Shown piece by piece: positions 1 to 12,928 of a DNA stretch of 12,928 nucleotides. The first letter of the stretch is position 1, and every line of letters begins with the position of its first letter. Location of the stretch: NCBI GenBank assembly GCA_903830565.1, contig CAIKUF010000338.1:1-12928 (forward strand). The letters are read 5' to 3'. The notes beneath the pieces are model-generated. The model did not search any database and was not told where the DNA came from. It saw only the letters and a program-made list of their open reading frames with translations. Both the position numbers and the translations under genes were made by a program. The DNA is from an uncultured bacterium. GTDB lineage: Bacteria > Pseudomonadota > Gammaproteobacteria > Burkholderiales > Burkholderiaceae_C.

Positions 1-50
1 ACCTTGGCCTTGAAGATCGCCGAGTGATTGCGGCGGGGTCTCTTGCTCAT
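1..50 (-). CDS. Possible 5' end of a transposase OrfA (helix-turn-helix, IS3/IS66-like N-terminus); gene runs off the left edge of the window
   Basis: Minus-strand ATG at 50..48 preceded by GAAGGA (5 nt spacer). Reads MSKRPRRNHSAIFKAKV..., which matches the very common transposase OrfA opening 'M..R.RR.HS.EFKAKV'. Only 17 codons are visible. Confidence 0.3.
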   Translation of the reverse strand, partial: MSKRPRRNHSAIFKAK

Positions 51-200
51 GGTCCTTCTGCTTTCCCGGGCCTCAGGCCCGTGCTGGTGTCGCAGAGTCT
101 CCACTTATCGCAGTGTTCAGTTTTGCGCTGCCACCTCTGTAGGGTGAAGCGGACCCTCCCTGCCGGCACCTACAAGTTCTGGAACTTCGAGCGCATCGCA

Positions 201-626
201 CTAGCTGACGCCCCATGGATTTGTGAGCGTCAGGCCGCAGCCTTCGAAATCAGACACGTTGCGTGTGGCCAGGCCCAACCGGTGACTCAGGGCGATCGCG
301 GCGATCTGGCCGTCGAACTGCGAGATGGGCCTGCCCGCGCGGCGGCGGGCCGCCACGACGGCGGCATACGCACCCGCGCAGCCTGAGTCGAACGGCAGGA
401 TTCGGCCTGCGAAGTCTTCGCCGAACATCGCTTCCAGCGCCTGCTCCAACTGCTGGCGCCGCTTGCCGGCGGGGAACAGGCCAGCACCGAGCATGATCTC
501 GGCCCGCGTCACCGCGCTCACGAACAGGCCCGCCACCGGCTGCGAGGCAACCCAAGCGAGCACAGCCGGATCGGGCTGCGCGCGCAGGAGTTCCGAGAGC
601 ACATTCGTGTCGAGCAGGATGCTCAT
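201..626 (-). CDS. vapC: Type II toxin VapC (PIN-domain ribonuclease)
   Basis: 141-aa ORF MSILLDTNVLSELLR... with the PIN acidic quartet intact (D6 in LLDTNV, E in TRAEI, D in SQFDGQIAA, D in NVSDFEG). Start overlaps the upstream antitoxin stop as ATGA (623-626). Confidence 0.85.
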   Translation of the reverse strand: MSILLDTNVLSELLRAQPDPAVLAWVASQPVAGLFVSAVTRAEIMLGAGLFPAGKRRQQLEQALEAMFGEDFAGRILPFDSGCAGAYAAVVAARRRAGRPISQFDGQIAAIALSHRLGLATRNVSDFEGCGLTLTNPWGVS

Positions 627-850
627 GCGCGCCGCGGTGGTCGCGCCCTGCCCTTGGCAGGCGTGCTGCGGACGGCCTTCGGCGCTCCGTCGAAGACGGG
701 CGGGGATCGCCCCGGTTCACGCTCGGGCACGCTCAGCTTCACATCGCCCAGGCCGACGAACCGGGCCCGGATTCGAGAGGCCAAGTCCAGCGCGGCTGCA
801 GGCGCCTCGCGCAGCGCGGCGCGCAGGATCTGCCGCGCCTCTTCTTCCAT
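623..850 (-). CDS. vapB: VapB/FitA-type (ribbon-helix-helix family) antitoxin, apparently N-terminally truncated (75 aa)
   Basis: MEEEARQILRAALREAPAAALDLASRIRARF... matches the helix-2 and toxin-binding tail of FitA/VapB RHH antitoxins (canonical '...HGRSMEEEARDILR...'). No in-frame start exists upstream of ATG 850 before the iorB stop at 885. The expected N-terminal beta-strand plus helix-1 ('ITIRNL...RLRVRAA') is absent or shifted into another frame. No clear SD. Confidence 0.55.
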   Translation of the reverse strand: MEEEARQILRAALREAPAAALDLASRIRARFVGLGDVKLSVPEREPGRSPPVFDGAPKAVRSTPAKGRARPPRRA

Positions 851-884
851 CGAACGGGTGCGGCTGCGCGGCCAAGGCCGGCGC

Positions 885-1466
885 TCAACCCGCCAGCTTG
901 CGCCCGGAGTCGAATGCGCGGCCGTTGGCGTCGGCGAGCGCGGCGCTCTTGCCGAAGCGGCGCAGTACTTCGGCGCGCAACACATCGGCGGCGAAAGGCA
1001 GGCTGCCGGAGGCGGCGCCGAGCATGACGCTGTTGGCCAGGCGCACGTCGCCGAGTTCGGCCGCGACGGCGCGCGCATCGAGTTCGACCACGTCGACGCC
1101 GGCCGCGCGCATCTCCGCCGCGGGCGCCTTCGGGTAGTCGAAGTGCCCGCTGGAAACGATGGGCGGCACGGCGCGCCACGAATCGACGAACGCGCGACCC
1201 TTCGGCGCGAGGTAGTGGCTCCAGCGCAGGCCCTCGGCCGATTCGAAGGCGAGCAGCAGCGTCGCCTGCCCGACGGCGATCTCCGTCGCCTCGATGCGCT
1301 GGGCGATGCGCACGTGCGAGCAGACGACGCCGCCGCGCTGCGACATGCCGGCGACCTCGGTCTTGGTCGCTTCCAAGCCCGCCGCCAGCGCCGCGCGGGC
1401 GAGGGTCTCGGCGGCCGTCATCACGCCCTGGCCACCGATGCCGACGACGAGAATGTCGGTCTTCAT
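885..1466 (-). CDS. iorB: Indolepyruvate / 2-oxoacid:ferredoxin oxidoreductase subunit beta
   Basis: MKTDILVVGIGGQGVMTAAETLARAAL... (Rossmann-like GxGGQG of the Ior beta / PFOR gamma family). ATG at 1466..1464 overlaps the iorA stop (ATGA). The longer ORF from 1505 would overlap iorA by 43 bp. Confidence 0.85.
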   Translation of the reverse strand: MKTDILVVGIGGQGVMTAAETLARAALAAGLEATKTEVAGMSQRGGVVCSHVRIAQRIEATEIAVGQATLLLAFESAEGLRWSHYLAPKGRAFVDSWRAVPPIVSSGHFDYPKAPAAEMRAAGVDVVELDARAVAAELGDVRLANSVMLGAASGSLPFAADVLRAEVLRRFGKSAALADANGRAFDSGRKLAG

Positions 1467-3307
1467 GCAGCGACGATCGCGCCGCGCGAGCAGACCTTCG
1501 CGCACAGTTGGCAGCCCGTGCAGGCCGCGGCGTCGATGGTCGTCCAGGCGAGGTCCACAACCTTGCCGCCGGCGCGCGTTTGCTGCTCACGGCGCGTGAC
1601 CGTGACGGCAGGGCAGCCGACTTCGAGGCAGCGCGCGCAGCCGTTGCAATCCTCATCGACGACCTTGAGCGGCGCGCGACGCTCGAACTCGGGCGTGAAC
1701 ACGCACGGGCCGGTGGCGATGATCACCGACGGCTCGCGCACCTTCATCTCTTCGCGCAGCACCTTGAGGAAGGTCGGCAGCTCGTAGGGGTCCGCCATGC
1801 GGATGCGCTCGGGCTTGACGCCCAGGGCCTGGACCAGGCGCGCGAAGTCGATCCGCGGCGCGATCGTGCCATCCATTCGGTGGCCGTTGCCTGGGTTGTT
1901 CTGGCCGCCCGTCATCGCGGTCGATCGGTTGTCGAGCAGCAGCACCGTCACATTGCCGCCTTGGTAGGTGATGTTGGCCAGCGCCGGCATTCCGGAGTGC
2001 AGGAAGGTCGAGTCGCCGATCACCGCGAGCACCGCCTTCGCATTCGCGTCGCCTTCCTGCGCCTTGGCCATGCCGTGGGCGACGCCGAGCGACGCGCCCA
2101 TCGCGATGCACATGTCCATCGCGTCCCACGGCGAGCCGCAGCCCAGCGTGTAGCAGCCGATGTCGCCGCAGATGATGGTTTCCTTCAACTGCCCGAGCCA
2201 GAAGTAGACGCCGGTGTAGGAGCACCCAGCGCACAGCGTCGGCGGGCGCGGGAACACGCTCGCAGCGCGCTGCGAGGCGCGGTTGTGCGAGGCATCGTCG
2301 GCGAGGCGCGCAACCGCCTGCTCCAGCACCGTGACGGTGATCTCGCCCCCGCGCGGCAAGACGCCCTTGCCGTGGACTGTGAGGCCCGCGGCGCGCAATT
2401 CGTTCTCGACGATGGGGTCGACTTCCTCGACAACGAGCACCTTGTCCACGCTCGCGGCGAGTTGCTTCGCGAGGCCGAGCGGCAACGGGTGCGACAGGCC
2501 GAGCTTGACGATGGGCGCCTGCGGGCAGGCCTCGCGCACGACGTGGTACGCGGGCCCGGAAACGATAAAGCCGATGCGGCGGTCGGCGCCGGGCTCAAGC
2601 CGATTCCATGGCGAAGACTCGGCTTCGAGTGCCAGCGCGGCGTCGCGCTCTGCGCGCAGCTCCAGCCGCTTGGCGACGTGGTTGGGCGTCGTGATCCAGC
2701 GCGGTGCGTCCTTCACGTAGCCATGCTGCCCGGCGTCGGGCGCTTGCTGCGCCGAGGTTTGCGTCATGCGCTTGACATGCGAGACGCGCGTCGTCAGGCG
2801 CACAAGCACCGGCACCTCGAAACGCTCCGAGAGCGCGAACGCGTCGCGGGTCATCGCATAGGCCTCGTTCGCATCGGAAGGCTCGAGCACCGGCAGATGA
2901 ACGAAGCGGCCCCAGAAGCGCGAGTCCTGCTCGTTCTGCGACGAAGAGAAACCGACGTCGTCCGACACCGCGATCACGAGCCCCGCCTTGGCGCCGACCT
3001 GCCCGAGCGTCATCAGCGAATCGGAGGCAACGTTCATCCCCACGTGCTTCATCGCCGTGATCGCGCGCCGCCCTGTCATCGACGCGCCGAGCGCCACTTC
3101 GAGCGCGACCTTCTCGTTCGTCGACCACTCGGCATAGATGCCGGGAAACGTGGCGAGTGTCTCGACGATCTCGGTCGACGGCGTACCGGGGTAGGCGGCT
3201 GCGATCTCGACGCCCGCGTCGAGCGCGCCGCGGGCGACGGCCTCGTTGCCGGAGAGAAACGCGCGCGCGGTCGCGGTCGCGATGGCAGGCTGGAGCACAG
3301 CACTCAT
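1463..3307 (-). CDS. iorA: Indolepyruvate:ferredoxin oxidoreductase subunit alpha (TPP-dependent, two C-terminal 4Fe-4S motifs)
   Basis: 614 aa with N-terminus MSAVLQPAI...LSGNEAVARGALDAGVEIAAAYPGTPSTEIVE typical of IorA. TPP-binding GDSTFLHSG. C-terminal CNGCARCLEVGCP / CTGCQLCAKVC ferredoxin motifs. GGAG 8 nt upstream of the ATG. Confidence 0.9.
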   Translation of the reverse strand: MSAVLQPAIATATARAFLSGNEAVARGALDAGVEIAAAYPGTPSTEIVETLATFPGIYAEWSTNEKVALEVALGASMTGRRAITAMKHVGMNVASDSLMTLGQVGAKAGLVIAVSDDVGFSSSQNEQDSRFWGRFVHLPVLEPSDANEAYAMTRDAFALSERFEVPVLVRLTTRVSHVKRMTQTSAQQAPDAGQHGYVKDAPRWITTPNHVAKRLELRAERDAALALEAESSPWNRLEPGADRRIGFIVSGPAYHVVREACPQAPIVKLGLSHPLPLGLAKQLAASVDKVLVVEEVDPIVENELRAAGLTVHGKGVLPRGGEITVTVLEQAVARLADDASHNRASQRAASVFPRPPTLCAGCSYTGVYFWLGQLKETIICGDIGCYTLGCGSPWDAMDMCIAMGASLGVAHGMAKAQEGDANAKAVLAVIGDSTFLHSGMPALANITYQGGNVTVLLLDNRSTAMTGGQNNPGNGHRMDGTIAPRIDFARLVQALGVKPERIRMADPYELPTFLKVLREEMKVREPSVIIATGPCVFTPEFERRAPLKVVDEDCNGCARCLEVGCPAVTVTRREQQTRAGGKVVDLAWTTIDAAACTGCQLCAKVCSRGAIVAA

Positions 3308-3351
3308 GACGTCGACTCCTGTTCAGGCCACGCTCGGCCCAAAGGTCATTC

Positions 3352-3396
3352 GGCAACGCTGAACAAGTCCCTCGCGGAGATTCATTCAGTGTTGCC
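3352..3396. promoter_or_regulatory. 12-bp inverted repeat GGCAACGCTGAA-N21-TTCAGTGTTGCC in the iorA leader (candidate operator)
   Basis: 11/12 complementary arms at 3352-3363 and 3385-3396, lying 45-90 nt upstream of the iorA start codon. Confidence 0.3.
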
Positions 3397-3399
3397 CTA

Positions 3400-3438
3400 G
3401 CGAGGTTGTCTCACACCTTGCGGCGTTTGCAACCTCGC
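3400..3438 (-). terminator. Inverted repeat GCGAGGTTG-N21-CAACCTCGC 9 nt after the flotillin stop (candidate terminator or second operator)
   Basis: 9-bp perfect arms. No U-tract, so as an intrinsic terminator it is weak. Same 21-nt spacer as the neighbouring repeat, and it shares a GTTGCC/GCAACC core with it. Confidence 0.2.
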
Positions 3439-3446
3439 CATTACCC

Positions 3447-5531
3447 TCAGTTCGCGGGAGAGCCCGGGTTCGCTATCGGCGCAGCGGCGACGGAATCCGC
3501 CGCGCCGCGCGCATAGTGGTCCTTCACCAGCCCGGCCAGCAGCACATCGACGAGCGTGCCGCCGCTGCCTGCCGTCCCGCCGCCGTTGACGAGCACGTCG
3601 GGCACCAGGCGCACGCCGGCGCCGGCCAGGGCCTGCGCGACCTGCACGACGGCGTAGTTGCCGGACTCCATTGAGTCGATCTTCTGCTTGATCACTGCCG
3701 CCTCAGCCTGGCCCACCGCCAGCGTCTTGCCGGCCTCGGCCTGGCCGGTGACGCGGATCACTTCGGCGTCGGCGTTGGCGTTGATCTTCTTCGCCTGCGC
3801 GGCGCCGTCGGCGGTCTTCACCGCGGCCTGGGCCGAAAACTCGGCGATCGCGACCTTGCGCTCGGCGTCCACCACCTGCGCCTGCGTCTTGGCCAGCGCG
3901 GTCGCCTGTTCGAGCTTTTGCTTGACGCCCTGCGCTTCCATCTGCGTGCTGAAGGTGACCTTCTCTTGCTCGGCGAGCTTGCGGTCGGTCAGCGTCTTCA
4001 TCAGGTCGGCCGGCGGGTTGATGTCGCCGATCAGCGTTTCCACGGCGCCGACGTCGTAGTCCTTGAGCGCACGGCCGATCGCCTCCTTGGCCTCGGCCTG
4101 ACGCTCGGTGCGCTTCTTCAGGAAGTCGATCACGTCCGAGTTCTGCGCCGCGTTGCGAAAGTAGTTGCCTATCGTCGGCTCGAGCACCTGCGTGACCAGC
4201 GCTTCCATGCTGCCGAAGCGGGCGATGACCTTGGGCGCGTCGTTGCGCGGGATGTGGATGATCTGGCTCACGTCGAGGTTGAAGGTGAAGCCGTCGGCCG
4301 AGCGCACGGTGATCGTCGACAGGTTGGCGTCGAGCTTGTGCGCCTCGGTCTTGCCGGTGGCCCAGTTCAGCACCACGTTGGCGGTCGGCACGACGCGCAC
4401 CTTGTGGGTGTAGGTGTTGATGGCGTACTTGCCCGGGTCCAGCACATCGACCCAGACGCCTTTCTCGCCGCGACGAACCATGTTCGCGTGCTTGAACTCG
4501 GCGCCGGTCACGTCGTCACCCGGCTTGCCGACGAAGGCCACCACGACGCCCACCGAAGCGATGGGCACCTCGGTCATGTCGATGATCTCGACCGTCGCGA
4601 ACATCGGGTTGACGAAGTAGCGCCCGGCCAGCAGCACCTGCTCCTGCAGGCCCTTGGTGCCGCCGCGGTCGACGAAGGCCTGCGGGTCCTGGAACAGGTT
4701 GTGCCCCGGCACTTCGGCGCCAGCGATCTCGCCGGTCTTGAGCGACGCGCCTTCGCGCGTGGTGACGATGCCGACCTTGTTGTCCGGCACGTCGAGCACG
4801 TTCGCGAGCGTGACCTTGAACAGGCGCGGGTTGATGCGATAGCGGCCCTGCGGAACGATGCTCATCTGCGGCCCGCGTTCGCCGCCATGGGCCATGAAGG
4901 CCTGCGCGGCCTGGAACGAATCGCACGCGACCTGCTTGCCGATGATGCGGCCACCCGAAAGCGGCGCGCCGTCGCGCGCTTCCACGATGCCGATCTTGCC
5001 CGGGTCGACCTCGGTCATCGGCTCCATTTGCACCGTGAAGAGCAAGGTGTTGATGCGCCACGCACCCGGCGGGACGACAGACATCTGCACGCCGCGCTGG
5101 CCGCCGCTGGCGAGGAAGGCGCGCGCGTCCTGGAAGTTGTCGCAATCGACATGCCGCGCGATCACGCGCCCATCGGGCAGCGGCTCGCCGTCGCAGGCCT
5201 CGATGACCGCGATCTGGCCATCGGGAACGAAGGTGAACTTCACCAACTCGACGGTGTACTGCCAGGGCCAGAGAAAGAAATGCAGGCCGGGCGCCAGCGT
5301 GTCGGCCTGCAGACCGGCCTCGCCGAGCATGGCGACGATGCGGCCCGGGGGCAGCTCGCGGTGCGAGCCGAAGAGCACGAACTTCTTGGTGACGGTGCCG
5401 ATGGAATCGTCCGGCACGATGACGATGCCGAACAGGCGGAAGGTCCACTTGTACAGCAGCACGAAGGCGACGACGGCGACGAGCACGAACAGCGCCGTCG
5501 AGTGATCGAAGAGAAAGTCAGTGACGCTCAT
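3447..5531 (-). CDS. Flotillin-family / SPFH (band 7) domain membrane protein with tandem N-terminal repeats
   Basis: 694 aa with an N-terminal TM helix (ALFVLVAVVAFVLLY). Three ~73-aa repeats (PDGQIAVIEACDG... / DPGKIGIVEARDG... / PDNKVGIVTTREG...) followed by an SPFH core, then an Ala/Gln/Glu/Lys-rich coiled-coil 'flotillin' tail and a Gly-rich C-terminus. AAGG 8 nt upstream of the start. Confidence 0.85.
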   Translation of the reverse strand: MSVTDFLFDHSTALFVLVAVVAFVLLYKWTFRLFGIVIVPDDSIGTVTKKFVLFGSHRELPPGRIVAMLGEAGLQADTLAPGLHFFLWPWQYTVELVKFTFVPDGQIAVIEACDGEPLPDGRVIARHVDCDNFQDARAFLASGGQRGVQMSVVPPGAWRINTLLFTVQMEPMTEVDPGKIGIVEARDGAPLSGGRIIGKQVACDSFQAAQAFMAHGGERGPQMSIVPQGRYRINPRLFKVTLANVLDVPDNKVGIVTTREGASLKTGEIAGAEVPGHNLFQDPQAFVDRGGTKGLQEQVLLAGRYFVNPMFATVEIIDMTEVPIASVGVVVAFVGKPGDDVTGAEFKHANMVRRGEKGVWVDVLDPGKYAINTYTHKVRVVPTANVVLNWATGKTEAHKLDANLSTITVRSADGFTFNLDVSQIIHIPRNDAPKVIARFGSMEALVTQVLEPTIGNYFRNAAQNSDVIDFLKKRTERQAEAKEAIGRALKDYDVGAVETLIGDINPPADLMKTLTDRKLAEQEKVTFSTQMEAQGVKQKLEQATALAKTQAQVVDAERKVAIAEFSAQAAVKTADGAAQAKKINANADAEVIRVTGQAEAGKTLAVGQAEAAVIKQKIDSMESGNYAVVQVAQALAGAGVRLVPDVLVNGGGTAGSGGTLVDVLLAGLVKDHYARGAADSVAAAPIANPGSPAN
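4568..5228 (-). repeat. Three tandem ~220-bp direct repeats inside the flotillin CDS (coordinates approximate)
   Basis: Protein-level triplication. The same repeated peptide strings are visible in the antisense frame of ORF 4858..5505 (MKACAAWNESHATCLPMMRPPESGAPSRASTMPILPGS / RKARASWKLSQSTCRAITRPSGSGSPSQASMTAIWPSG). Confidence 0.7.
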
Positions 5532-5827
5532 GGGGAACCTTTCGGTGACCGAAACGAACTCTCAGTGTGCACTCGCTGGCATCAGCGCCGCATAAGTTTC
5601 TCTGCAGCGAGCCGCCCGATGGAGGGCAAGTCCGAGAACTTCGGTGGCCCATCGCAGTGGGGCGCACAAGCGGCGCGCGCCAACCTTCCCGCGCACGCTC
5701 GCGCCCTCTCGACGGCACAGTACAGTCGCCGACAGCAGTGCATCCCCGCCTGGCTCGCGCGCCCGCGCCAGGCGCGCCCGACGTACGTTGACGGGCTGCG
5801 CATCTGCCGCCATCGCGAAGGGACCCC

Positions 5828-7075
5828 ATGCTCGAAGTCGCCGCTGTCTGCCTCGTCATCACCGCACTGCTGTCCTACCTCAACCATCGCTACATCGGCC
5901 TGCCCTCGGCGATCGGGATGATGGCCGCCGCGCTGACGCTTTCGCTGGCCCTGGTCTGGCTGGACACCGCCGGCATCAAGCCCGGCCTGCGCCAGTACGA
6001 GGAAACACTGCTGCGCTCGATCGACTTCTCGAACGCGCTGATGCAGGGCATGTTGTCGTTCCTGCTCTTTGCCGGCGCGCTGCACGTCGACCTCAAGCAG
6101 CTCAAGATCTATCGCTGGCCGGTGGCGGCACTGGCCGTGCTGGGCACCACGCTGTCGACGCTCGCCGTCGGCTACGGGATGTGGTTCGCGCTGCCGCTGC
6201 TGGGCCTGCATCTGCCCTTGATCTACTGCCTGCTGTTCGGAGCGCTGATCTCGCCGACCGACCCGATCGCCGTGATGGGCATCCTCAAGTCGGCCCACGC
6301 ACCGAAGGAGCTCGAGCTCGTGATCGCCGGCGAATCGCTCTTCAACGACGGCGTCGGCGTGGTGATCTTCTCGCTGCTACTGGGCATGCTGGCCAGCGGC
6401 GTCGCGCCGACGACGAATCAGGCGCTGCAACTGCTGGTCCATGAAGCCGGCGGCGGCGTGCTGTTCGGCCTGCTGCTCGGCTACGTCACCTTTCGTCTGT
6501 TGAGGAGCGTCGACAACTACCAGGTCGAGGTGATGCTGACGCTGGCGGCCGTGACAGGCGGCTACATGCTCGCGACCAAGCTGCACGTGTCGGGGCCGCT
6601 CGCGATGGTCGTCGTCGGTCTGATCGTCGGCAACCAGGGCCGCGCCCTGGCGATGTCGGACACCACGCGCAAGTATCTCGACATGTTCTGGGAGTTGCTC
6701 GACCAGATCCTCAATGCCGTGCTCTTCGTGCTGATGGGCATGGAGGTTCTGCTGGTCACCTTCACGCTCAGCGAACTCGTGGCCACGGTTCTCGCGGTTG
6801 GCGTGACCTTGCTCGCGCGCGCGGCCATCGTCGGCCTGCCGGCGGCGGTGCTGCCGCGGGCATTCAACCTGCCGCGCGGATCGTGGAAGGTGCTGACCTG
6901 GGGCGGGCTGCGCGGAGGCATCTCGGTCGCGCTGGCGCTCTCGCTGCCCGCCGGTGCGGAGCGCGACACCGTGGTCGCGCTGACCTACGGTGTCGTCGTC
7001 TTCTCGATCTTCGCGCAGGGGCTGTCGATCGGCTACGTCACGCGCAAGTCGGTTGGCGGGCCTGCGCAAACGTAG
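5828..7075 (+). CDS. nhaP: NhaP-type (CPA1 family) Na+(K+)/H+ antiporter
   Basis: 415-aa polytopic protein. Family hallmarks LISPTDPIAVMGILK, ESLFNDGVGVVIFS and TWGGLRGGISVALALSLP. AGGGA 5 nt upstream of the ATG. Confidence 0.85.
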   Translation: MLEVAAVCLVITALLSYLNHRYIGLPSAIGMMAAALTLSLALVWLDTAGIKPGLRQYEETLLRSIDFSNALMQGMLSFLLFAGALHVDLKQLKIYRWPVAALAVLGTTLSTLAVGYGMWFALPLLGLHLPLIYCLLFGALISPTDPIAVMGILKSAHAPKELELVIAGESLFNDGVGVVIFSLLLGMLASGVAPTTNQALQLLVHEAGGGVLFGLLLGYVTFRLLRSVDNYQVEVMLTLAAVTGGYMLATKLHVSGPLAMVVVGLIVGNQGRALAMSDTTRKYLDMFWELLDQILNAVLFVLMGMEVLLVTFTLSELVATVLAVGVTLLARAAIVGLPAAVLPRAFNLPRGSWKVLTWGGLRGGISVALALSLPAGAERDTVVALTYGVVVFSIFAQGLSIGYVTRKSVGGPAQT

Positions 7076-7186
7076 GGCGCCGAATTAGTTGCTCTGGCGC
7101 GTAAGCGCCGACAAGGACTTAGAACTTATCCGCAAATCGCAAACTATCTGCCCGAGCCGCATTGATCGCGGCGTTGGCGTTGGGAT

Positions 7187-7738
7187 ATGCCAGCAAAGCG
7201 AGCTGATTCCTGGGTGGTGACGGATGAGTTCTGGGCGCGGGTCCAACCGCTGGTCCCAGAGGTCAAGCGCGCGACGCGCACGCAGTACGTTCGCAAGCCC
7301 CGGGCGGGTCGACCGCCCAAACCGGCCAGGCAGGTGTTTGAGGCGGCGGTGTACGTGTTGCGCACGGGATGCCAGTGCAAGGCACTGCCCAACGAGCGGT
7401 TCGGCAGTGCGAGCACCGTGCACAAGCGGTTTTTGCAATGGGAGGAGGCCGGCTTCTTTGAGGCGCTGTGGAATGCCGGCCCAGCTGGCCGAGTACGACC
7501 AGATGCAGGGCATTGCCTGGCGCTGGCAGAGCACGGACGGGGCGATGTTCAAGGCATCGATGGCACTCCAAGCCGTCGGGCCCAACCCGACGGATCGGGG
7601 GAAAAATGGGGGCAAGCGGCACCTGCTGGTGGACGGGCTCGTTCCCGGTGCTTCCCGCTTGGTCTCAAGTCGTTGATCGAGCATTCCGAGCGCATTGATG
7701 CGGTTCCAGGTTCTCAAGCGGTCCTGCGATTTGTGTAG
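7187..7738 (+). pseudogene. IS5-family (IS427/IS1031-group-like) transposase remnant, frameshifted and truncated
   Basis: Frame 2 reads VTDEFWARVQPLVP...RAGRPPKPARQVFEAAVYVLRTGCQCKALPNERFGSASTVHKRFLQWEEAGFFEALW (OrfA-like). It continues only after a +1 shift into frame 0, as LAEYDQMQGIAWRWQSTDGAMFKA...VGPNPTDRGKNGGKRHLLVDGLVPG. That matches the start of the DDE domain ('IDGS..RA..GPSPVDRG.KGSKHHL..D..GIPLA') and stops at 7676. The rest of the DDE domain is missing. A possible C-terminal tail lies in frame 2 (LKSLIEHSERID...). Confidence 0.75.
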
Positions 7739-7856
7739 CTTTCGCGGCCGGATTGCACAGGAACTACACGCACTCCAGTGATCTCGGCTAGCGCAGAGGA
7801 TCTGTGGGAATCGACGCTTGACCATCGTCTGCGCCCACCATCTTGGCAATGCAGCC

Positions 7857-10800
7857 CTATGCCGCCGCCCGCTGCCTGATCTCGTCTAGCACCTGCACCA
7901 TCCGATCAACCTTGGCGGTCGGAAACAGACCTTCCGGTCCCTGCGGGCTGATGTCGAGGAACGGCGACTCGTACAGCCGCGCGGCCTCCATCACGCCGTT
8001 GGTCGTCAGCTCGGAAACGATCAATTCGATGAACTCGATCTGGTCCGGCGTGGCCTGGGTGCCCGCGATCACGTCACTGAAAGCCTGCGCAACTGCCTCG
8101 CGTTCCATGCCGACCAAAGATCGGATGAAGATGCCCAGCCCGAACTTGTCCTCTGCCGCCTTCTGGATCAACTCCGGCGTGCCGCCGGCGTCGACCAGCA
8201 TGCGCTGCAGTTCCACCACGTCGGCGGGCGTCAGTGCCTGGCCGCGCCGCAGCCGCTGCAAGGCCAGATGGCCCAGGTGGGCCTTGAGGAACTGCCGCGC
8301 CTTGTCCTTGAACCTGGCCATGTCCAGGCCGTTAGCGACTTCGGGCAGGTCGAAGGTGGTCTCGGTGCCCAGCTCGTCGATGAAGTCGGTGTAGACCACC
8401 TTCTTCTTCGACTTCTCGATCAGCTTGACCAGCAGGCGCAGCCGCTTGCGAGCGTTCTCCAACATGCCCAGCGTCACATCGTTCCACCATTCGTCACCTG
8501 CGATAGCCTGGATCAGCACCATTTCGGCCTGGATGGCGGGCACGGCTTCCTGCTCCTCCAGTGCGCTGGCAATGGCGCGAATCTGATCCCGCAGCGCGCC
8601 AAACCCAGGCGCGGCTTGCAGGATGGCCAGTTGGGTGCGCAGCACAAGCAGGTCGAAGCGTTTGGCCTCCTCGTCAGCGTCCACCAGCTCGGTGGGCAGG
8701 CCGGCGATGTGGCTGGCCAGTTCGGCGTGGTCGTCGCCAGTCAACGCATGCCAGGCTTCAGGCCGGGTGAACTTTTCGACCGCGCGCCGCTGCGGCCGCA
8801 CCACGAAGTTCTCGACATTCATGGCCGCCACCAGCTGGTGCAGGTGGCCGGCCGTGCTGTCACGCAACTGCTGGTGGTTGGGCTGCGGCCCGTACTTGGC
8901 AGGCGACTCGTTGATCTGCTGCCCATCGACGACCTTACGGTCCAGCTCATCAATCAGGCTCAACCGCGCCTTGAACAAGCGCGTGCCCAAGGATTCGCTG
9001 GAACTGCCGTCGGTGGTGTCGGGGTTCTGGCTGAAGAATTCCAGGTTCTGGCAATAGTCGAACAGGTAGAAGAATTTCTTGTGTTCGCCCGGAGCGAACA
9101 AATCGGGGCACAGCCGCGTGCCGCGCCCCACCATCTGCCAGAACTTCGTGCGCGAGCGGACGATCTTGAAGAACACCAGGTTCACCACCTCGGGCACGTC
9201 GATGCCGGTGTCCAGCATGTCCACCGAGATGGCGATGTGCGGTGCCTTGTCCTTGGCCGAGAAGGCGTCGATCAGGCTCTGCGCGTAGACGGTCTTGTAG
9301 GTGACGACGCGCGCGAACTCGCCCTTGTAGTGTGGGTAGTTGACATTGAAACGCTCGGCGATGAACTCGGCGTGGTCGTTGTTCTTGGCGAACACGATGG
9401 TCTTGCCCAGCCTGTCGCCGCCGGCCACCTTCTGGCCCTTGGTCATCAGGTGCGCCAGCGCCTTGTCGACCGTGTCGGTGTTGAACAGCCACTGGTTCAG
9501 GGCCGCGGCCTCCACCTCGTCGGGCGGCGGGCTGCCGTCCTCACTCCACTCCAGGGCGTCCCACTGTTCCTTCTCGTCTTCGCTGAGTTGGGCGTACTTG
9601 ATGCCGTCGCGCTGAAACTTCAGCGGCACCGACACCGCCAGCGGCGGCACCAGATGGCCATCGGCCACCGCCTGGTCCAGCGGGTAGGCGTCGGTGGGCA
9701 CGCCGTCTTCGAGGTCGAACAGGCCATAGGTGTTGTGGTCGATCTCGTCCTTGGGCGTGGCCGTCAGGCCCACCAGCAGGCAGTCGAAGTACTCGAAGAT
9801 GGCGCGGTACTTCTGGTAGACCGAGCGGTGCGCCTCGTCGATCACGATCAGGTCGAAATGGCCGACGCCGAAGCGGCGCTGCCCGTCCATGGCGTCGTCG
9901 ATCAAGCCCATCATCGTCGGGTAGGTGGAGACGAACACCCGGCCCTCGGTGTGCTTGTCGGTCACCAGGTTGACCGGCGATGAGTCCGGCAGGTGGCGCT
10001 TGAAGGCATTCACCGCCTGGTTCACCAATGCCACCCGGTCGGCCAGGAACAGCACTCGCTTGGCCCAGTTGGCGCGCATCAGCACATCGGCCAGGGCGAT
10101 CACCGTGCGTGTCTTGCCGGCGCCGGTGGCCATCACCGCCAACGCCTTGCGCAGGTGGTGCTTCTCGAATGTCTCGCCGATGCGGCGCACGGTGCGCACC
10201 TGGTAGTAGCGCTCGACGATGCCGGCGTCTATCGCCGCGCTGGCCAGCGGTTTGCGGCTGCTGCGGCGCTGGATCATCAGCGCCAGCTCGGCCTTCTTGT
10301 AGAACCCCTGCACTGCACGCGGCGGGTAGAGCGCATCGTCCCAGATCCAGTGCTCATAGCCGTTGGAGCAGAAGATCACCGGCCGCTGGCCGTACTGCGC
10401 CTCCAGGCAATCGGCATACAGCTTGGCTTGCTGCTGGCCCTCCTTGGCGCCCTTCTTCGTGCGCTTGGCTTCCACCAGCGCCAGCGGCTTGCCGTCGTCA
10501 CCCCACAGCACGTAATCGACGAAGCCCTTGCCTTGCTCGTTGGGCATGCCGGCGACTTCGATCTCGAAATTCTTCTTCGGGTCGAGTTGCCAGCCGGCCT
10601 CCTTCAGCAGCAGGTCGATAAAGTAGTCGCGGGTTGCCGCTTCGGAATAGTCGTGCGTGTCGGGCGTGGCGGCGTTGGCCCGCTTGGCTGCGGTCACCTC
10701 TTCGCGCAGCCGGGCCAGCTCGGCATCCAGCGCCGCCGTGGTGCCAAGCAGCGTGGAGAGCCTTTCATCGCGCTCGGCGAGCTGCGCCTCCAGCTTCTGC

Positions 10801-11273
10801 AACTGGTCCAGGGTCTGCGGTGGCAGGGCCGGTGCTGCGGCGGCAGGCCGGGTCAGCAGCGCCGGGTTGAAGTCCAGCCCGGGGTCGGGCCGGCCGCGCT
10901 GACCATAGGTGCGCGCCAGCCAGTAGCCGATGTGGAACAGCTCGCGCGTGGCCACCATGGCATCGGCCGGCAGCACCTTGCGGGCGCTGTGCACAGCCTG
11001 GTTGCCCAGTTCCTTGATCACCTTTGCCTTGGTGAACACCGCCTGGCCCACTACCTGGGCGAAGCTGGGCTCGTGGATCAGTGCGCTCAGGTTGTCCTGG
11101 TAGGGCAGGCGCAAGCCACGGTCATGCTTGTAGAGCCAGGCCACCGCCAGTTCCAGCGTGCGCCGGGCGTAGAAGCAGGCGACCCGGGCATCGGCATGCA
11201 CCATGTCTTCGGCCTTGGTTGCCGACTCGTGCAGCAGCGGCCACTCAGCCAGCAGGAAGCTGAAGTTGCTCAT
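7857..11273 (-). CDS. hsdR: Type I restriction enzyme R subunit (HsdR): N-terminal DUF4145-like domain, PD-(D/E)xK nuclease, SF2 DEAH helicase, EcoEI_R_C-like C-terminus
   Basis: 1138 aa from MSNFSFLLAEWPLLHESATKAE. HsdR_N nuclease motifs ATRDYFIDLLLKEAGWQL and FVDYVLWGDDGKPLALVEAKRTKK. Helicase motif I MATGAGKTRT, motif II LIVIDEAHRS, motif VI QMVGRGTRL. The longest ORF starts at 11318, but the family-typical N-terminus begins at ATG 11273. Confidence 0.85.
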   Translation of the reverse strand: MSNFSFLLAEWPLLHESATKAEDMVHADARVACFYARRTLELAVAWLYKHDRGLRLPYQDNLSALIHEPSFAQVVGQAVFTKAKVIKELGNQAVHSARKVLPADAMVATRELFHIGYWLARTYGQRGRPDPGLDFNPALLTRPAAAAPALPPQTLDQLQKLEAQLAERDERLSTLLGTTAALDAELARLREEVTAAKRANAATPDTHDYSEAATRDYFIDLLLKEAGWQLDPKKNFEIEVAGMPNEQGKGFVDYVLWGDDGKPLALVEAKRTKKGAKEGQQQAKLYADCLEAQYGQRPVIFCSNGYEHWIWDDALYPPRAVQGFYKKAELALMIQRRSSRKPLASAAIDAGIVERYYQVRTVRRIGETFEKHHLRKALAVMATGAGKTRTVIALADVLMRANWAKRVLFLADRVALVNQAVNAFKRHLPDSSPVNLVTDKHTEGRVFVSTYPTMMGLIDDAMDGQRRFGVGHFDLIVIDEAHRSVYQKYRAIFEYFDCLLVGLTATPKDEIDHNTYGLFDLEDGVPTDAYPLDQAVADGHLVPPLAVSVPLKFQRDGIKYAQLSEDEKEQWDALEWSEDGSPPPDEVEAAALNQWLFNTDTVDKALAHLMTKGQKVAGGDRLGKTIVFAKNNDHAEFIAERFNVNYPHYKGEFARVVTYKTVYAQSLIDAFSAKDKAPHIAISVDMLDTGIDVPEVVNLVFFKIVRSRTKFWQMVGRGTRLCPDLFAPGEHKKFFYLFDYCQNLEFFSQNPDTTDGSSSESLGTRLFKARLSLIDELDRKVVDGQQINESPAKYGPQPNHQQLRDSTAGHLHQLVAAMNVENFVVRPQRRAVEKFTRPEAWHALTGDDHAELASHIAGLPTELVDADEEAKRFDLLVLRTQLAILQAAPGFGALRDQIRAIASALEEQEAVPAIQAEMVLIQAIAGDEWWNDVTLGMLENARKRLRLLVKLIEKSKKKVVYTDFIDELGTETTFDLPEVANGLDMARFKDKARQFLKAHLGHLALQRLRRGQALTPADVVELQRMLVDAGGTPELIQKAAEDKFGLGIFIRSLVGMEREAVAQAFSDVIAGTQATPDQIEFIELIVSELTTNGVMEAARLYESPFLDISPQGPEGLFPTAKVDRMVQVLDEIRQRAAA

Positions 11274-11291
11274 GCCTGCCCGCCCCATGGA

Positions 11292-11415
11292 TTGCAATTG
11301 GCGGCGCCGCGGTTGCAAATGCCCCAGCGTGCCAACTCATTGAAAGGCAAGGCAAATTTCGGCTGCATTGCAACTTCAGCCAGCCTCGTTTGCAACTTGC
11401 TGGCCGGGGTTGCAA
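11292..11415. repeat. Array of five palindromic TTGCAA hexamers in the hsdR leader
   Basis: TTGCAA at 11292, 11313, 11368, 11390 and 11410 (start-to-start gaps 21, 55, 22, 20 bp). The first copy is the extended palindrome ATTGCAAT. Flanks resemble each other (gTTGCAACTT twice). Confidence 0.6.
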
Positions 11416-11443
11416 TCGGCCGGCGGCGGGCCGGGATGTTTGG

Positions 11444-12031
11444 TCATGGCTTGGCAGGGGTCGCCTGAACCTGGGCTTCCACGGCCGCAGCCAGCAGCGG
11501 CGCCACACCGCGCAACCCGTCCAGCGTGAGGCGGCCGGACAAGTACATGTCGTACCAGGACTTGCGCCAGCGGATCACCCGCTCACCGTCGCGCAGCTTC
11601 AATCGCTTCAGCGTGAATTCGGCCTTTGCGCGGTAGGCGGCGGGCACAGCATCCGTGACGCGCAACTGCAACGAAGGCAGGATGATCTCGAACCAACCGG
11701 CACCGACTTCAAAAGGGTCGAGCACCGCATCGTCCGCATCACGCTTGGATGAGTTCAAGGGCCCGGAAGCGAAGCGGTAGTTGCTCCACTCATAGGCCAG
11801 ATCGCGGTGGCGCTTGAAGCTGAGAAAGTGATCCACCGTGCCGCCGGTCGGATCGTGCATGGCAGCGTAGCCGCACAGGTTGTGGAAAGCCTCGGACAAC
11901 TGCGATGTGTAGGTCGCCCACAGTGCCGGGGGCCGTGCTGCCTCTGGGTTGTTTGCCAACCATGCGTCGCCCGGGACCTTGACTTTGGCATCGAAGCCGC
12001 GAGGCTTCTTTGCCCGGGCCATAGGGATCAT
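11444..12031 (-). CDS. HNH-like nuclease of the TIGR02646 / Septu PtuB type (putative)
   Basis: 195 aa. Motif CGYAAMHDPTGGTVDHFLSFKRHRDLAYEWSNYRFASGPLNSSKRD fits the TIGR02646 HNH core (D/E-H-F-x-P/S-x-S ... LAY-x-W-x-N-L-x-x-A-x-x-x-N-x-x-K). Its start overlaps the upstream ATPase stop as ATGA (12028-12031). Confidence 0.55.
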   Translation of the reverse strand: MIPMARAKKPRGFDAKVKVPGDAWLANNPEAARPPALWATYTSQLSEAFHNLCGYAAMHDPTGGTVDHFLSFKRHRDLAYEWSNYRFASGPLNSSKRDADDAVLDPFEVGAGWFEIILPSLQLRVTDAVPAAYRAKAEFTLKRLKLRDGERVIRWRKSWYDMYLSGRLTLDGLRGVAPLLAAAVEAQVQATPAKP

Positions 12032-12928
12032 GGGGCGCCCCCGACCCGGCCTACTCCTTTGATCATCTTGGTGTCGACCAACCAGCGTGGCCAGAACTCA
12101 TCGCCGACCGACAGCAGCTTGCGCAATTGGGCGTGAATGGCCGCCTGGGAGTCCAGCCCCGCGGGCAATGGCTTGTCGCCCCGCATGAAGGCTTCGGCTG
12201 CCTCGATGGCCCGTTCGGCTTCTACTGACCGCGCTTGTTCCAGCCCGAAAGTCTCTGACACCAGCCAGCTGCTGGCGTCGCCCTGGGTGGCCCAGCCGCC
12301 TTGGTCGATAGCCACTTGGCCGTTGCGCAGCGACAGGTGGATCAGGTCATCCTTGCCCGCATCGAAATAGGGCTCCAGCGACGCCGCCACCAGCGGCGAA
12401 TGGGTGGCCACCAGCATCTGCGGCGCACGGCCTGCCTTGCCGCGCAGAGTGTCGATGGCCTTCAGCACGCTGGGCAGTACGACGCGCTGCCAGCGCGGGT
12501 GCAGATGCGTCTCGGGCTCGTCGAACAGCACCACGAAGCGGTCTTCCGGCTTCTTGCCGAGCAGTTGAGCCGCGGCCCGGTGCTCGTGCCAGGCCCACAC
12601 CAGAAAGTAGGCCAGCGCCAGCACCCGCCGCACGCCGGCCGAGGCCAGCGACACCGGCACCGTCTGGTTGCCCACCAGCAGCGTGGGCCGGTCGCGGCCC
12701 TCGCCCAGGAATACCCGCTGCGGCTGCCCCACCCGTAGCGGCTCCGACGGCGGCGACAGCACACGCAGCACTTCTTCCAGCACCTGGAACTGCGGCTCGC
12801 GGCCTTCCAGCCAGTTGACCCAGTCCCGTTCCAGGCCCTCACACACACGCTGGCCCTTGATGTCCAGGCCGTCCCACACCTGCGGTGCCTGAAAGTGATA
12901 AGCCGCGGGCCGGCCGGGGTCGGTGCGC
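12028..12928 (-). CDS. ABC/SMC-like AAA ATPase (AAA_15/AAA_21 type, PtuA-like), 5'-truncated by the window end
   Basis: The reading frame stays open to the window edge (no stop upstream of the GTG at 12879). ABC-signature-like SLASAGVRRVLALAYFL, Walker B RFVVLFDEPETHLHP, H-loop QMLVATHSP, then a ~140-aa C-terminal extension. Translationally coupled to the HNH gene. Confidence 0.6.
   Translation of the reverse strand, partial: RTDPGRPAAYHFQAPQVWDGLDIKGQRVCEGLERDWVNWLEGREPQFQVLEEVLRVLSPPSEPLRVGQPQRVFLGEGRDRPTLLVGNQTVPVSLASAGVRRVLALAYFLVWAWHEHRAAAQLLGKKPEDRFVVLFDEPETHLHPRWQRVVLPSVLKAIDTLRGKAGRAPQMLVATHSPLVAASLEPYFDAGKDDLIHLSLRNGQVAIDQGGWATQGDASSWLVSETFGLEQARSVEAERAIEAAEAFMRGDKPLPAGLDSQAAIHAQLRKLLSVGDEFWPRWLVDTKMIKGVGRVGGAP

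Follow-up and report, generated by a model that had tools for sequence, protein, structure and literature searches.

A conserved, phased TTGCAA array next to hsdR: a possible operator linked to Schlafen-like genes of restriction loci

The window analyzed here is the whole 12,928-nucleotide stretch of contig CAIKUF010000338.1 (positions 1 to 12,928), which stems from an uncultured bacterium of the Burkholderiaceae_C, and the element in question is an array of five TTGCAA palindromes upstream of its type I restriction gene. This gene, hsdR (7857..11273, minus strand), encodes a restriction subunit of 1138 aa with an N-terminal DUF4145 domain; a family scan of the protein gives DUF4145, HSDR_N, ResIII, helicase and EcoEI_R_C. 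The preceding gene, ptuB (11444..12031, minus strand, stop codon TGA at 11446-11444), encodes the 195-aa HNH nuclease of a Septu system. An earlier note, made from the sequence alone, had read it as an HNH nuclease gene, and this assignment is confirmed and refined: the open reading frame (ORF) 12031-11444 matches no Pfam family and is PtuB by PADLOC (PDLC00348, E 3.5e-68). The gene for the Septu AAA ATPase, ptuA (12028..12928, minus strand; PADLOC E 4e-106), is cut by the window end and codes for 422 aa on the full contig. Because the contig begins within hsdS, the operon order here is hsdS-ptuA-ptuB-array-hsdR. The Septu system (ptuA-ptuB, 11444-12928, minus strand) thus lies between hsdS and hsdR, in the slot that is held in relatives by a Schlafen-like gene described below.

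The earlier note placed the start of hsdR at TTG 11318, with a gap of 125 bp in front of it. The start codon is instead the ATG at 11273-11271, from which the product opens with MSNFSFL as in its homologues and with which an independent gene call agrees (1138 aa). Since TTG 11318 is not the start of hsdR, the gap between the ptuB stop and the hsdR start measures 170 bp (11274-11443, minus strand) and not 125 bp. It contains the whole array, all five copies being intergenic, and not a single TA dinucleotide. Both hsdR and ptuB are encoded on the minus strand, which likewise corrects the earlier note.

The five copies of TTGCAA begin at 11292, 11313, 11368, 11390 and 11410, exactly where they had been reported, and span 125 bp. 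On the minus strand, which is the sense strand of hsdR, they are numbered in the direction of transcription: S1 (11408..11417, core 11410-11415; GATTGCAACC), S2 (11388..11397, core 11390-11395; AGTTGCAAAC), S3 (11366..11375, core 11368-11373; AGTTGCAATG), S4 (11311..11320, core 11313-11318; TTTGCAACC, in relatives usually ATTGCAAC and inverted relative to S5) and S5 (11290..11299, core 11292-11297; AATTGCAATC). S2 is the weakest site and reads TTTCAA in the related loci L005 and L022, whereas the TTGCAAT of S5 is invariant in all intact arrays examined. Relative to the hsdR ATG, the sense-strand starts of S1 to S5 lie at −142, −122, −100, −45 and −24, and the array ends 18 nt 5′ of the start codon. 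The unit is a short palindrome that is oriented by its asymmetric flank (GTTGCAAW). S5 (GTTGCAAT) repeats S4 (ATTGCAAC) in inverted orientation at a distance of 21 bp; S1 and S2 are spaced by 20 bp, S2 and S3 by 22 bp. In many loci, S1 and S5, and also S4 and S5, are reverse complements over 8-12 nt, the match between S1 and S5 covering 9-12 nt.

The gaps of 21, 22 and 20 bp had been noted correctly, but the conclusion that all sites occupy one face of the DNA does not hold: at 10.5 bp per turn they fall into two in-phase groups, with S5 and S4 at 0 degrees and S3, S2 and S1 at 86-120 degrees. A further hexamer, TTTCAA on the sense strand (TTGAAA on the plus strand; 11340..11345, minus strand), lies 28 bp after S3 and 27 bp before S4. 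It had been suspected to be a degenerate copy of the repeat. It is indeed present and conserved in relatives, but not as an in-phase degenerate copy; because of its distance of 27-28 bp from the neighboring sites, we regard it as a separate conserved box. This box is conserved as strongly as the TTGCAA copies despite being out of phase, and in some loci it forms part of a TTG-N5-CAA motif (TTGTTTTTCAA).

The array is not a product of base composition. None of 20,000 dinucleotide-preserving shuffles of the 170-bp spacer reached five copies (mean 0.37). The window holds eight copies of TTGCAA in total, compared with 2.3 expected, and the three copies outside the array (1644, 3427 and 7433) represent background at 0.24/kb. 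In 968 kb of related loci the background is 0.285/kb.

We searched for relatives of hsdR in one genome per species, which yielded 80 loci. The array is found at the same offsets in L005, L007 (Ramlibacter monticola) and L014 (Rubrivivax sp. A210), and it is recognizable in L022, L061 and the Nitrospira loci L048 and L053, in which HsdR is only 66% identical. It is absent from L003, L004 and L009, where hsdR is 88-91% identical and follows a different upstream gene. Most hsdR relatives, these three included, lack the array, and an association with hsdR alone was therefore rejected. A scan of metagenome contigs with a pattern of three spaced copies returned at least five true arrays among the matches listed (L124, L141, L170, L202 and L209); the remaining matches were mostly chance occurrences in AT-rich DNA, together with unrelated satellites and coding repeats. 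Contigs encoding homologous proteins added L228, L231, L234, L235, L240, L241, L247 and L248. The array-bearing loci come from Burkholderiales, Nitrospira, other metagenomic lineages and a contig ascribed to Myxococcales. Among viral contigs, a scan returned nothing but chance matches with two copies, and BLAST against plasmids gave no match for the array. A mobile repeat of the miniature inverted-repeat transposable element or repetitive extragenic palindrome type was rejected, since the true arrays among the metagenome matches listed all lie at the same gene junction. Plasmid iterons, which are direct repeats of 17-22 bp conserved along their full length beside a rep gene, were dismissed as well. 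In the array, conservation is limited to the hexamer and the units point in either direction; it belongs to a chromosomal restriction-modification operon without a rep gene.

The gene downstream of the array varies and can be hsdR, a DUF1156-type gene or inserted cargo. In L170 and L202, the array precedes a DUF1156-type gene (a type judged from the N-terminal sequence) and not hsdR. In L209, it is followed by a Fic gene (judged from the motif HPFLDGNGR) and then by hsdR, and in L022, L228, L231 and L247 by a short 5′ remnant of hsdR, inserted cargo and then hsdR. Upstream, 14 loci (L005, L007, L022, L048, L053, L061, L124, L141, L170, L202, L209, L228, L231 and L234) carry the array directly 3′ of a gene for a protein of ~550 aa with SLFN_AlbA_2 and HATPase_c_4 domains, which we refer to as the Schlafen-like gene. 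Among the 80 hsdR loci, an array was scored in 6/7 with this gene and in 2/73 without it (Fisher p = 6e-7), the latter two being L014 and an unrelated direct repeat in L023. The true metagenome arrays, at least five among the matches listed, all sit just after a homologue of the Schlafen-like gene, and two of them precede the DUF1156-type gene.

S1 is located within the 3′ tail of the Schlafen-like gene in relatives, usually 29 nt past the codons for R-W-Y/F-P-G, and the peptide tail is otherwise variable. In the 120 closest homologue tails, the S1 motif is read as D-C-N in 46 cases, as L-Q-P in 26 and as I-A-T in three; all three frames were confirmed on DNA (L005/L048/L202 and others, L061/L228, and L234). 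Because the same motif is read in three frames, selection appears to act on the nucleotides and not on the protein, for which we consider this strong evidence. In L007, the Schlafen-like gene (4229-5899) starts only 10 nt after hsdS and is thus probably co-transcribed with the methylase genes hsdM-hsdS.

Conservation is concentrated in the sites themselves. In an alignment of six diverged loci, the 30 core positions show 88% pairwise identity and the TTTCAA box 94%, whereas the remaining spacer columns reach 50%; in 5000 draws of five randomly placed hexamer blocks, the core identity was never matched; these statistics ignore phylogeny, and the alignments are anchored on the motifs themselves. 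Between the window and the second array of L235 (L235b), 29/30 core positions are identical versus 57/134 others (Fisher p = 1.6e-8). The spacing was counted over 15 arrays, L014 being left out because it nearly duplicates the window. Of the 43 intervals between adjacent exact copies, 12 measure 21 bp, the commonest distance, and 20 measure 20-23 bp; intervals of 11, 32 and 40-43 bp were also seen. The last 99 nt 5′ of hsdR contain no insertion or deletion among eight diverged loci. The array is therefore real, non-random and phased, it is conserved as nucleotide sequence, and it occurs in association with the Schlafen-like gene. That it is not a chance arrangement but a cis-element under nucleotide-level selection agrees with the shuffles, the conservation footprint and the independence from reading frame.

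In the window, the Schlafen-like gene itself is missing. A stretch of 62 nt (11376..11437, minus strand) aligns to the end of that gene in L007 (5836-5899), including the position of its TGA (11378-11376), and represents a surviving remnant of its tail; the gene is absent from the whole 14-kb contig, and ptuB ends at 11444. The same Septu-type layout with five intact copies occurs in L241/L244, L247 and L248-250, and with four copies in L014. Within this clade of five lineages, 1/30 core columns and 0/6 columns of the box are variable, compared with 37/120 others (p = 7e-4 and 1.5e-4), indicating that the sites are still constrained without an adjacent Schlafen-like gene. An association with the upstream Septu genes was rejected: the stand-alone Septu loci L237 and L239, and also L238, have no array. 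L240 shows the same gene order and an alignable spacer, in which all five sites are mutated (TTGCAT, GATCAG, TTTCAA, TTGCAG, ATGCCA). Its identity to the window is 21/30 in the core and 84/134 elsewhere (p = 0.53), that is, at the neutral rate; no Schlafen-like gene lies nearby, and hsdR is intact despite the loss of all sites.

The Schlafen-like protein is predicted to combine a Schlafen/AlbA_2 domain, a GHKL-type ATPase domain and two winged-helix-like units. The latter are modeled in the C-terminal 150 residues as two H-H-H-E-E units with a predicted local distance difference test score (pLDDT) of 70-91. Foldseek finds weak local matches of these units to winged-helix domains, Pfam winged-helix matches stay below threshold, and NCBI labels the protein a “putative DNA binding domain-containing protein”. 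According to a recent study (PMC13462974; 2026), Schlafen-ATPase proteins with DNA-binding domains are tightly associated with restriction-modification systems and have no known function; it further states that prokaryotic Schlafen domains are RNases and that how these enzymes are activated has yet to be defined. As the only gene consistently linked to the array, the Schlafen-like gene encodes what we see as the best candidate for its binder.

Taken together, we propose that the TTGCAA array and the TTTCAA box form a conserved operator-type DNA array for protein binding at the 5′ side of the hsdR unit, a proposal to which we give an even chance. The invariant palindromes, the oriented flanks, the two-turn spacing and the freedom from reading frame suggest a symmetric DNA-binder that acts cooperatively. 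The earlier note had arrived at a similar idea, with which the palindromes, the ~21-bp spacing and the place directly upstream of hsdR are consistent. A symmetric, probably oligomeric protein could occupy neighboring sites on one DNA face in a cooperative manner. In the presumed ancestral layout, the array would follow and overlap the last codons of the Schlafen/AlbA_2-ATPase-winged-helix gene, whose product would be the most likely binder and could gate the downstream gene, be it hsdR or another nuclease- or methylase-type defense gene. In the window, the Septu cassette has replaced the Schlafen-like gene up to ~25 nt before S1. A position 3′ of genes expressed with the methylase and just 5′ of hsdR fits a role in controlling the restriction subunit. 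That a protein binds, which protein it is and that it affects hsdR transcription are inferences. The more specific hypothesis, namely that Schlafen/AlbA_2-GHKL-ATPase-winged-helix proteins of restriction-modification loci bind DNA sequence-specifically, assemble on the phased TTGCAA array where their own gene ends and in this way gate the downstream nuclease (hsdR or DUF1156-type), is tentative and in our view less likely than not.

Several observations weigh against the operator proposal. A sigma-70 promoter, with −35 and −10 hexamers 16-18 nt apart, A at −11 and T at −7, was sought by a consensus scan of 11150-11600, which returned no site, and the lack of TA in the spacer agrees with this, which makes the target of an operator unclear unless the promoter is activator-dependent or hsdR is reached by read-through. 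In the window, L014, L241, L247 and L248, constrained sites occur without a Schlafen-like gene in the examined DNA and with Septu in its place; since these sites are separated from their presumed partner, the binder would have to be supplied in trans, or a different protein binds. Conversely, the Limnohabitans locus L036 (5808-6000) carries a 70% identical Schlafen-like gene directly before hsdR, followed by a different, AT-rich spacer without TTGCAA; it is the sole exception to the association among the loci that carry the gene. In L235 both arrangements coexist. Its Schlafen-like gene precedes a degenerate array and gene remnants, and a second, intact array lies between a Septu cassette and hsdR. 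The degenerate array (5660-5790) consists of one-mismatch variants (ATGCAAT, ATTGCAT, ATTGCC) with the 21-bp spacing kept, which could reflect either decay or a shifted specificity. The model of the Schlafen-like protein is poor overall (mean pLDDT 54), and the neglect of phylogeny and the motif-anchored alignments mentioned above also count here.

The same lack of a visible promoter can be read differently, because it makes it probable that the spacer is transcribed. The element could then act in RNA, through self-pairing of UUGCAA (S1:S3 and S4:S5) or through an RNA-binding protein such as the Schlafen RNase domain, and control the processing, stability or translation of the hsdR mRNA. S1:S3 and S4:S5 hairpins do appear in the minimum-free-energy folds, certain mismatches would permit G-U pairing on the sense strand but not on the other, and the reverse complementarity of S1 and S4 with S5 as well as the RNase activity ascribed to prokaryotic Schlafen domains (PMC13462974) would fit. 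Nevertheless, we consider this unlikely. The folds barely stand out from shuffles (z-scores of −1.4 and −0.9), RNAalifold gives an unfavorable covariation term (+1.67), and the spacer has no Rfam match; covariation of the S1:S3 and S4:S5 hairpins is 0.080 versus 0.093 in shuffles, and the losses of S1 in L007 and of S4 in L014 are uncompensated. The individual hairpins S1:S3, S4:S5, S1:S5 and S2:S4, whether in RNA or in single-stranded DNA, were all rejected for want of covariation and for unremarkable energies, and the sole terminator-like match lies on the opposite strand. What is invariant is the sequence and not the pairing, and the spacing of 21 ± 1 corresponds to the helical repeat of DNA. 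Alternatively, the hexamers might themselves be promoter elements, with TTGCAA as a −35-like element and TGCAAT 16-17 nt further on as a non-canonical −10 element, giving tandem S2/S3 and S4/S5 promoters for hsdR. The conserved S4-S5 offset of 21-23 bp has the geometry of a −35/−10 pair, retention of the motif across phyla fits a universal machinery, and the constraint on the sites without the Schlafen-like gene would be explained. Such promoters are nonetheless quite unlikely in our view: TGCAAT lacks the near-essential A at −11, the consensus scan was empty, S1 resides ~140 nt from the gene and within a coding tail upstream, a single hexamer would need to double as −35 and −10, extra copies lie 11 bp apart in L141 and L170, and hsdR of L240 is intact without the sites. 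A sigma-54 promoter, which the earlier note had already discounted, is not present either. Such a promoter needs GG and GC exactly 10 nt apart (TGGCAC-N5-TTGCA). The TGGCAC upstream of S4 (minus strand; 11328-11333 on the plus strand) has its GC one base too close, with the nearest TTGCA at 10 nt instead of the required 5, and it is not conserved in L005, L007 and L014.

The observations on the Septu-type loci bear on another explanation, in which the array of the window is an inert, recent relic of a lost Schlafen-like gene neighborhood. The partner gene is absent from the 14-kb contig, only its 62-nt tail remnant survives, and the sites of L240 have decayed fully without harm to hsdR; against this, five independent Septu-type loci keep their sites, with 1/30 core versus 37/120 (31%) other columns variable (p = 7e-4), and we regard a relic as very unlikely. 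It is still less probable that TTGCAA is the target of a methyltransferase and the cluster an epigenetic switch of hsdR. A 6-bp palindrome is reminiscent of type II targets, and methylation-sensitive control of restriction-modification promoters is known, CfrBI reportedly being an example. But neither the window nor the loci of the relatives encode a methyltransferase of this kind, the target of a type I system is bipartite and would vary with hsdS, asymmetric flanks and fixed orientations would be unexpected, and the array is kept in very different hosts. Coding constraint was considered as well. A 32-codon frame is open on the minus strand (11270-11368), from an ATG within S3 (11368) to a TGA (11270) that overlaps the hsdR start (ATGA), and the hexamers could reflect Cys-Asn and Phe-Asn codons of a leader peptide translationally coupled to hsdR. 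In eight diverged loci this frame is open over the same length, and several Leu, Pro and Phe codons differ synonymously between the window and L235b. However, its ratio of nonsynonymous to synonymous differences (pN/pS) is 0.82 versus 0.92-0.95 in the other frames, and variability is flat across codon positions (25, 22 and 22 of 25 columns). L005 and L235b lack the start codon, and in L048, L022 and the loci with 20-, 22- or 23-bp spacing the frame is either closed or shifted. The codon preceding TGC ends in T without exception, a constraint at the level of nucleotides, and S1-S3 fall in other frames. The leader peptide was rejected and is, of all these explanations, the one we find hardest to credit.

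As far as is known, type I restriction enzymes are controlled mainly by proteolysis of HsdR and not by transcription factors. A close parallel to the proposed operator array is provided by the C-protein operators of type II restriction-modification systems (C.PvuII, C.AhdI, C.Esp1396I), which also consist of palindromic units just upstream of the restriction gene and are cooperatively bound at adjacent sites. There, the regulator is co-expressed with the methylase side, as the candidate here probably is, so that restriction could be delayed after transfer. The earlier note saw no resemblance to C-protein boxes, and motif, layout and gene context do differ: C-boxes are two adjacent ~11-bp palindromes upstream of the C gene, whereas the array spreads five hexamers across 125 bp and, in relatives, follows the candidate regulator gene and overlaps its end. 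Controller genes of the small Xre type (helix-turn-helix, ~80-100 aa) were detected neither in Pfam, NCBIfam and PADLOC scans of the ORFs of the window nor in the gene lists of the relatives next to the array. Moreover, the system is of type I, and the candidate regulator is a putative 550-aa Schlafen-ATPase protein. Regulators of the BrxR/CapW type, which carry WYL or winged helix-turn-helix domains and belong to bacteriophage exclusion (BREX), cyclic oligonucleotide-based antiphage signaling (CBASS) and similar systems, are dedicated small repressors with one inverted repeat upstream of their own gene. They resemble the case described here in that a DNA-binder, a candidate one in our case, resides in a defense locus with inverted-repeat sites at the effector boundary, but differ from a candidate with nuclease-like Schlafen and ATPase domains and a phased multi-copy array. 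Cooperatively bound operator arrays on one DNA face are also known from lambda CI (OR/OL), the met-boxes of MetJ and the loops formed by GalR, DeoR and CytR. With these the array shares repeats at integral turns, in two groups ~55 bp apart that could be bridged; the motif differs, no homology is implied, and the resemblance extends only to a possible mode of action.

The “cluster 7” Schlafen-ATPase proteins described in PMC13462974 have the same domain composition and the same association with restriction-modification systems as the gene adjoining the array. We found no cis-element for Schlafen-ATPase proteins in the passages of that study that were consulted or in literature searches, and searches on the motif, on transcriptional control of hsdR and on the gene family retrieved no description of the array. 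That the array of relatives sits where a gene for a Schlafen-like protein with predicted DNA-binding domains ends suggests a switch for restriction genes that has not been described before. A conserved and phased array immediately 5′ of hsdR hints at a layer of controller-like regulation in type I systems and at least one other defense system. If the more specific hypothesis is correct, type I restriction, whose control is regarded as post-translational, would have a transcriptional controller, and the widespread Schlafen-like defense proteins would have a defined DNA ligand. The array also offers a concrete and testable candidate DNA ligand for the Schlafen-ATPase proteins that accompany restriction-modification systems and whose activation is unknown according to PMC13462974.

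The array also marks a fixed boundary of the slot between hsdS and hsdR, in which defense cargo such as Septu, toxin-antitoxin pairs, Fic and others is swapped. The cargo found there consists of Septu, MNT/HEPN and PIN toxin-antitoxin pairs, Fic, AAA_14/DUF4143, NTP_transf_8 or IS66. Short 5′ hsdR and 3′ hsdS remnants were left as scars (L022 3290-3800; L228 2480-2830; L231 5770-5830; L235 5790-5960; L247 3250-3390), and these scars suggest that cargo is exchanged through recombination within the conserved gene ends. In L242, an otherwise identical metagenomic variant of the locus, DNA bearing an IS66-family transposase starts 6 nt past S5 (at ~3240) and splits the array from hsdR.

Some further repeats are unrelated to the array. 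The direct repeat in the Collimonas locus L023 (175-390) consists of cgcgtccatctTTGCAAt, present twice ~80 nt apart. The metagenome contigs L128, L152, L158, L165 and L200 contain TTGCAAC satellites or coding repeats with a period of ~10-13 nt. Just 3′ of hsdR in the window, a 254-aa ORF (7085-7849, minus strand) has no match in Pfam, NCBIfam and PADLOC, and the gene caller of the source annotates in this stretch only a 67-aa gene on the opposite strand. A connection between the array and a TTGCAAC in the leader of iorA, as drawn in the earlier note, was not supported: this is a lone copy at chance level inside an unrelated hairpin. The hairpin (3400-3438, minus strand) is formed by a 9-bp inverted repeat, GCGAGGTTG ... 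CAACCTCGC, located 9 nt past the stop of an SPFH/Band-7 gene and upstream of iorA, and it resembles a stem-loop without a T-run.

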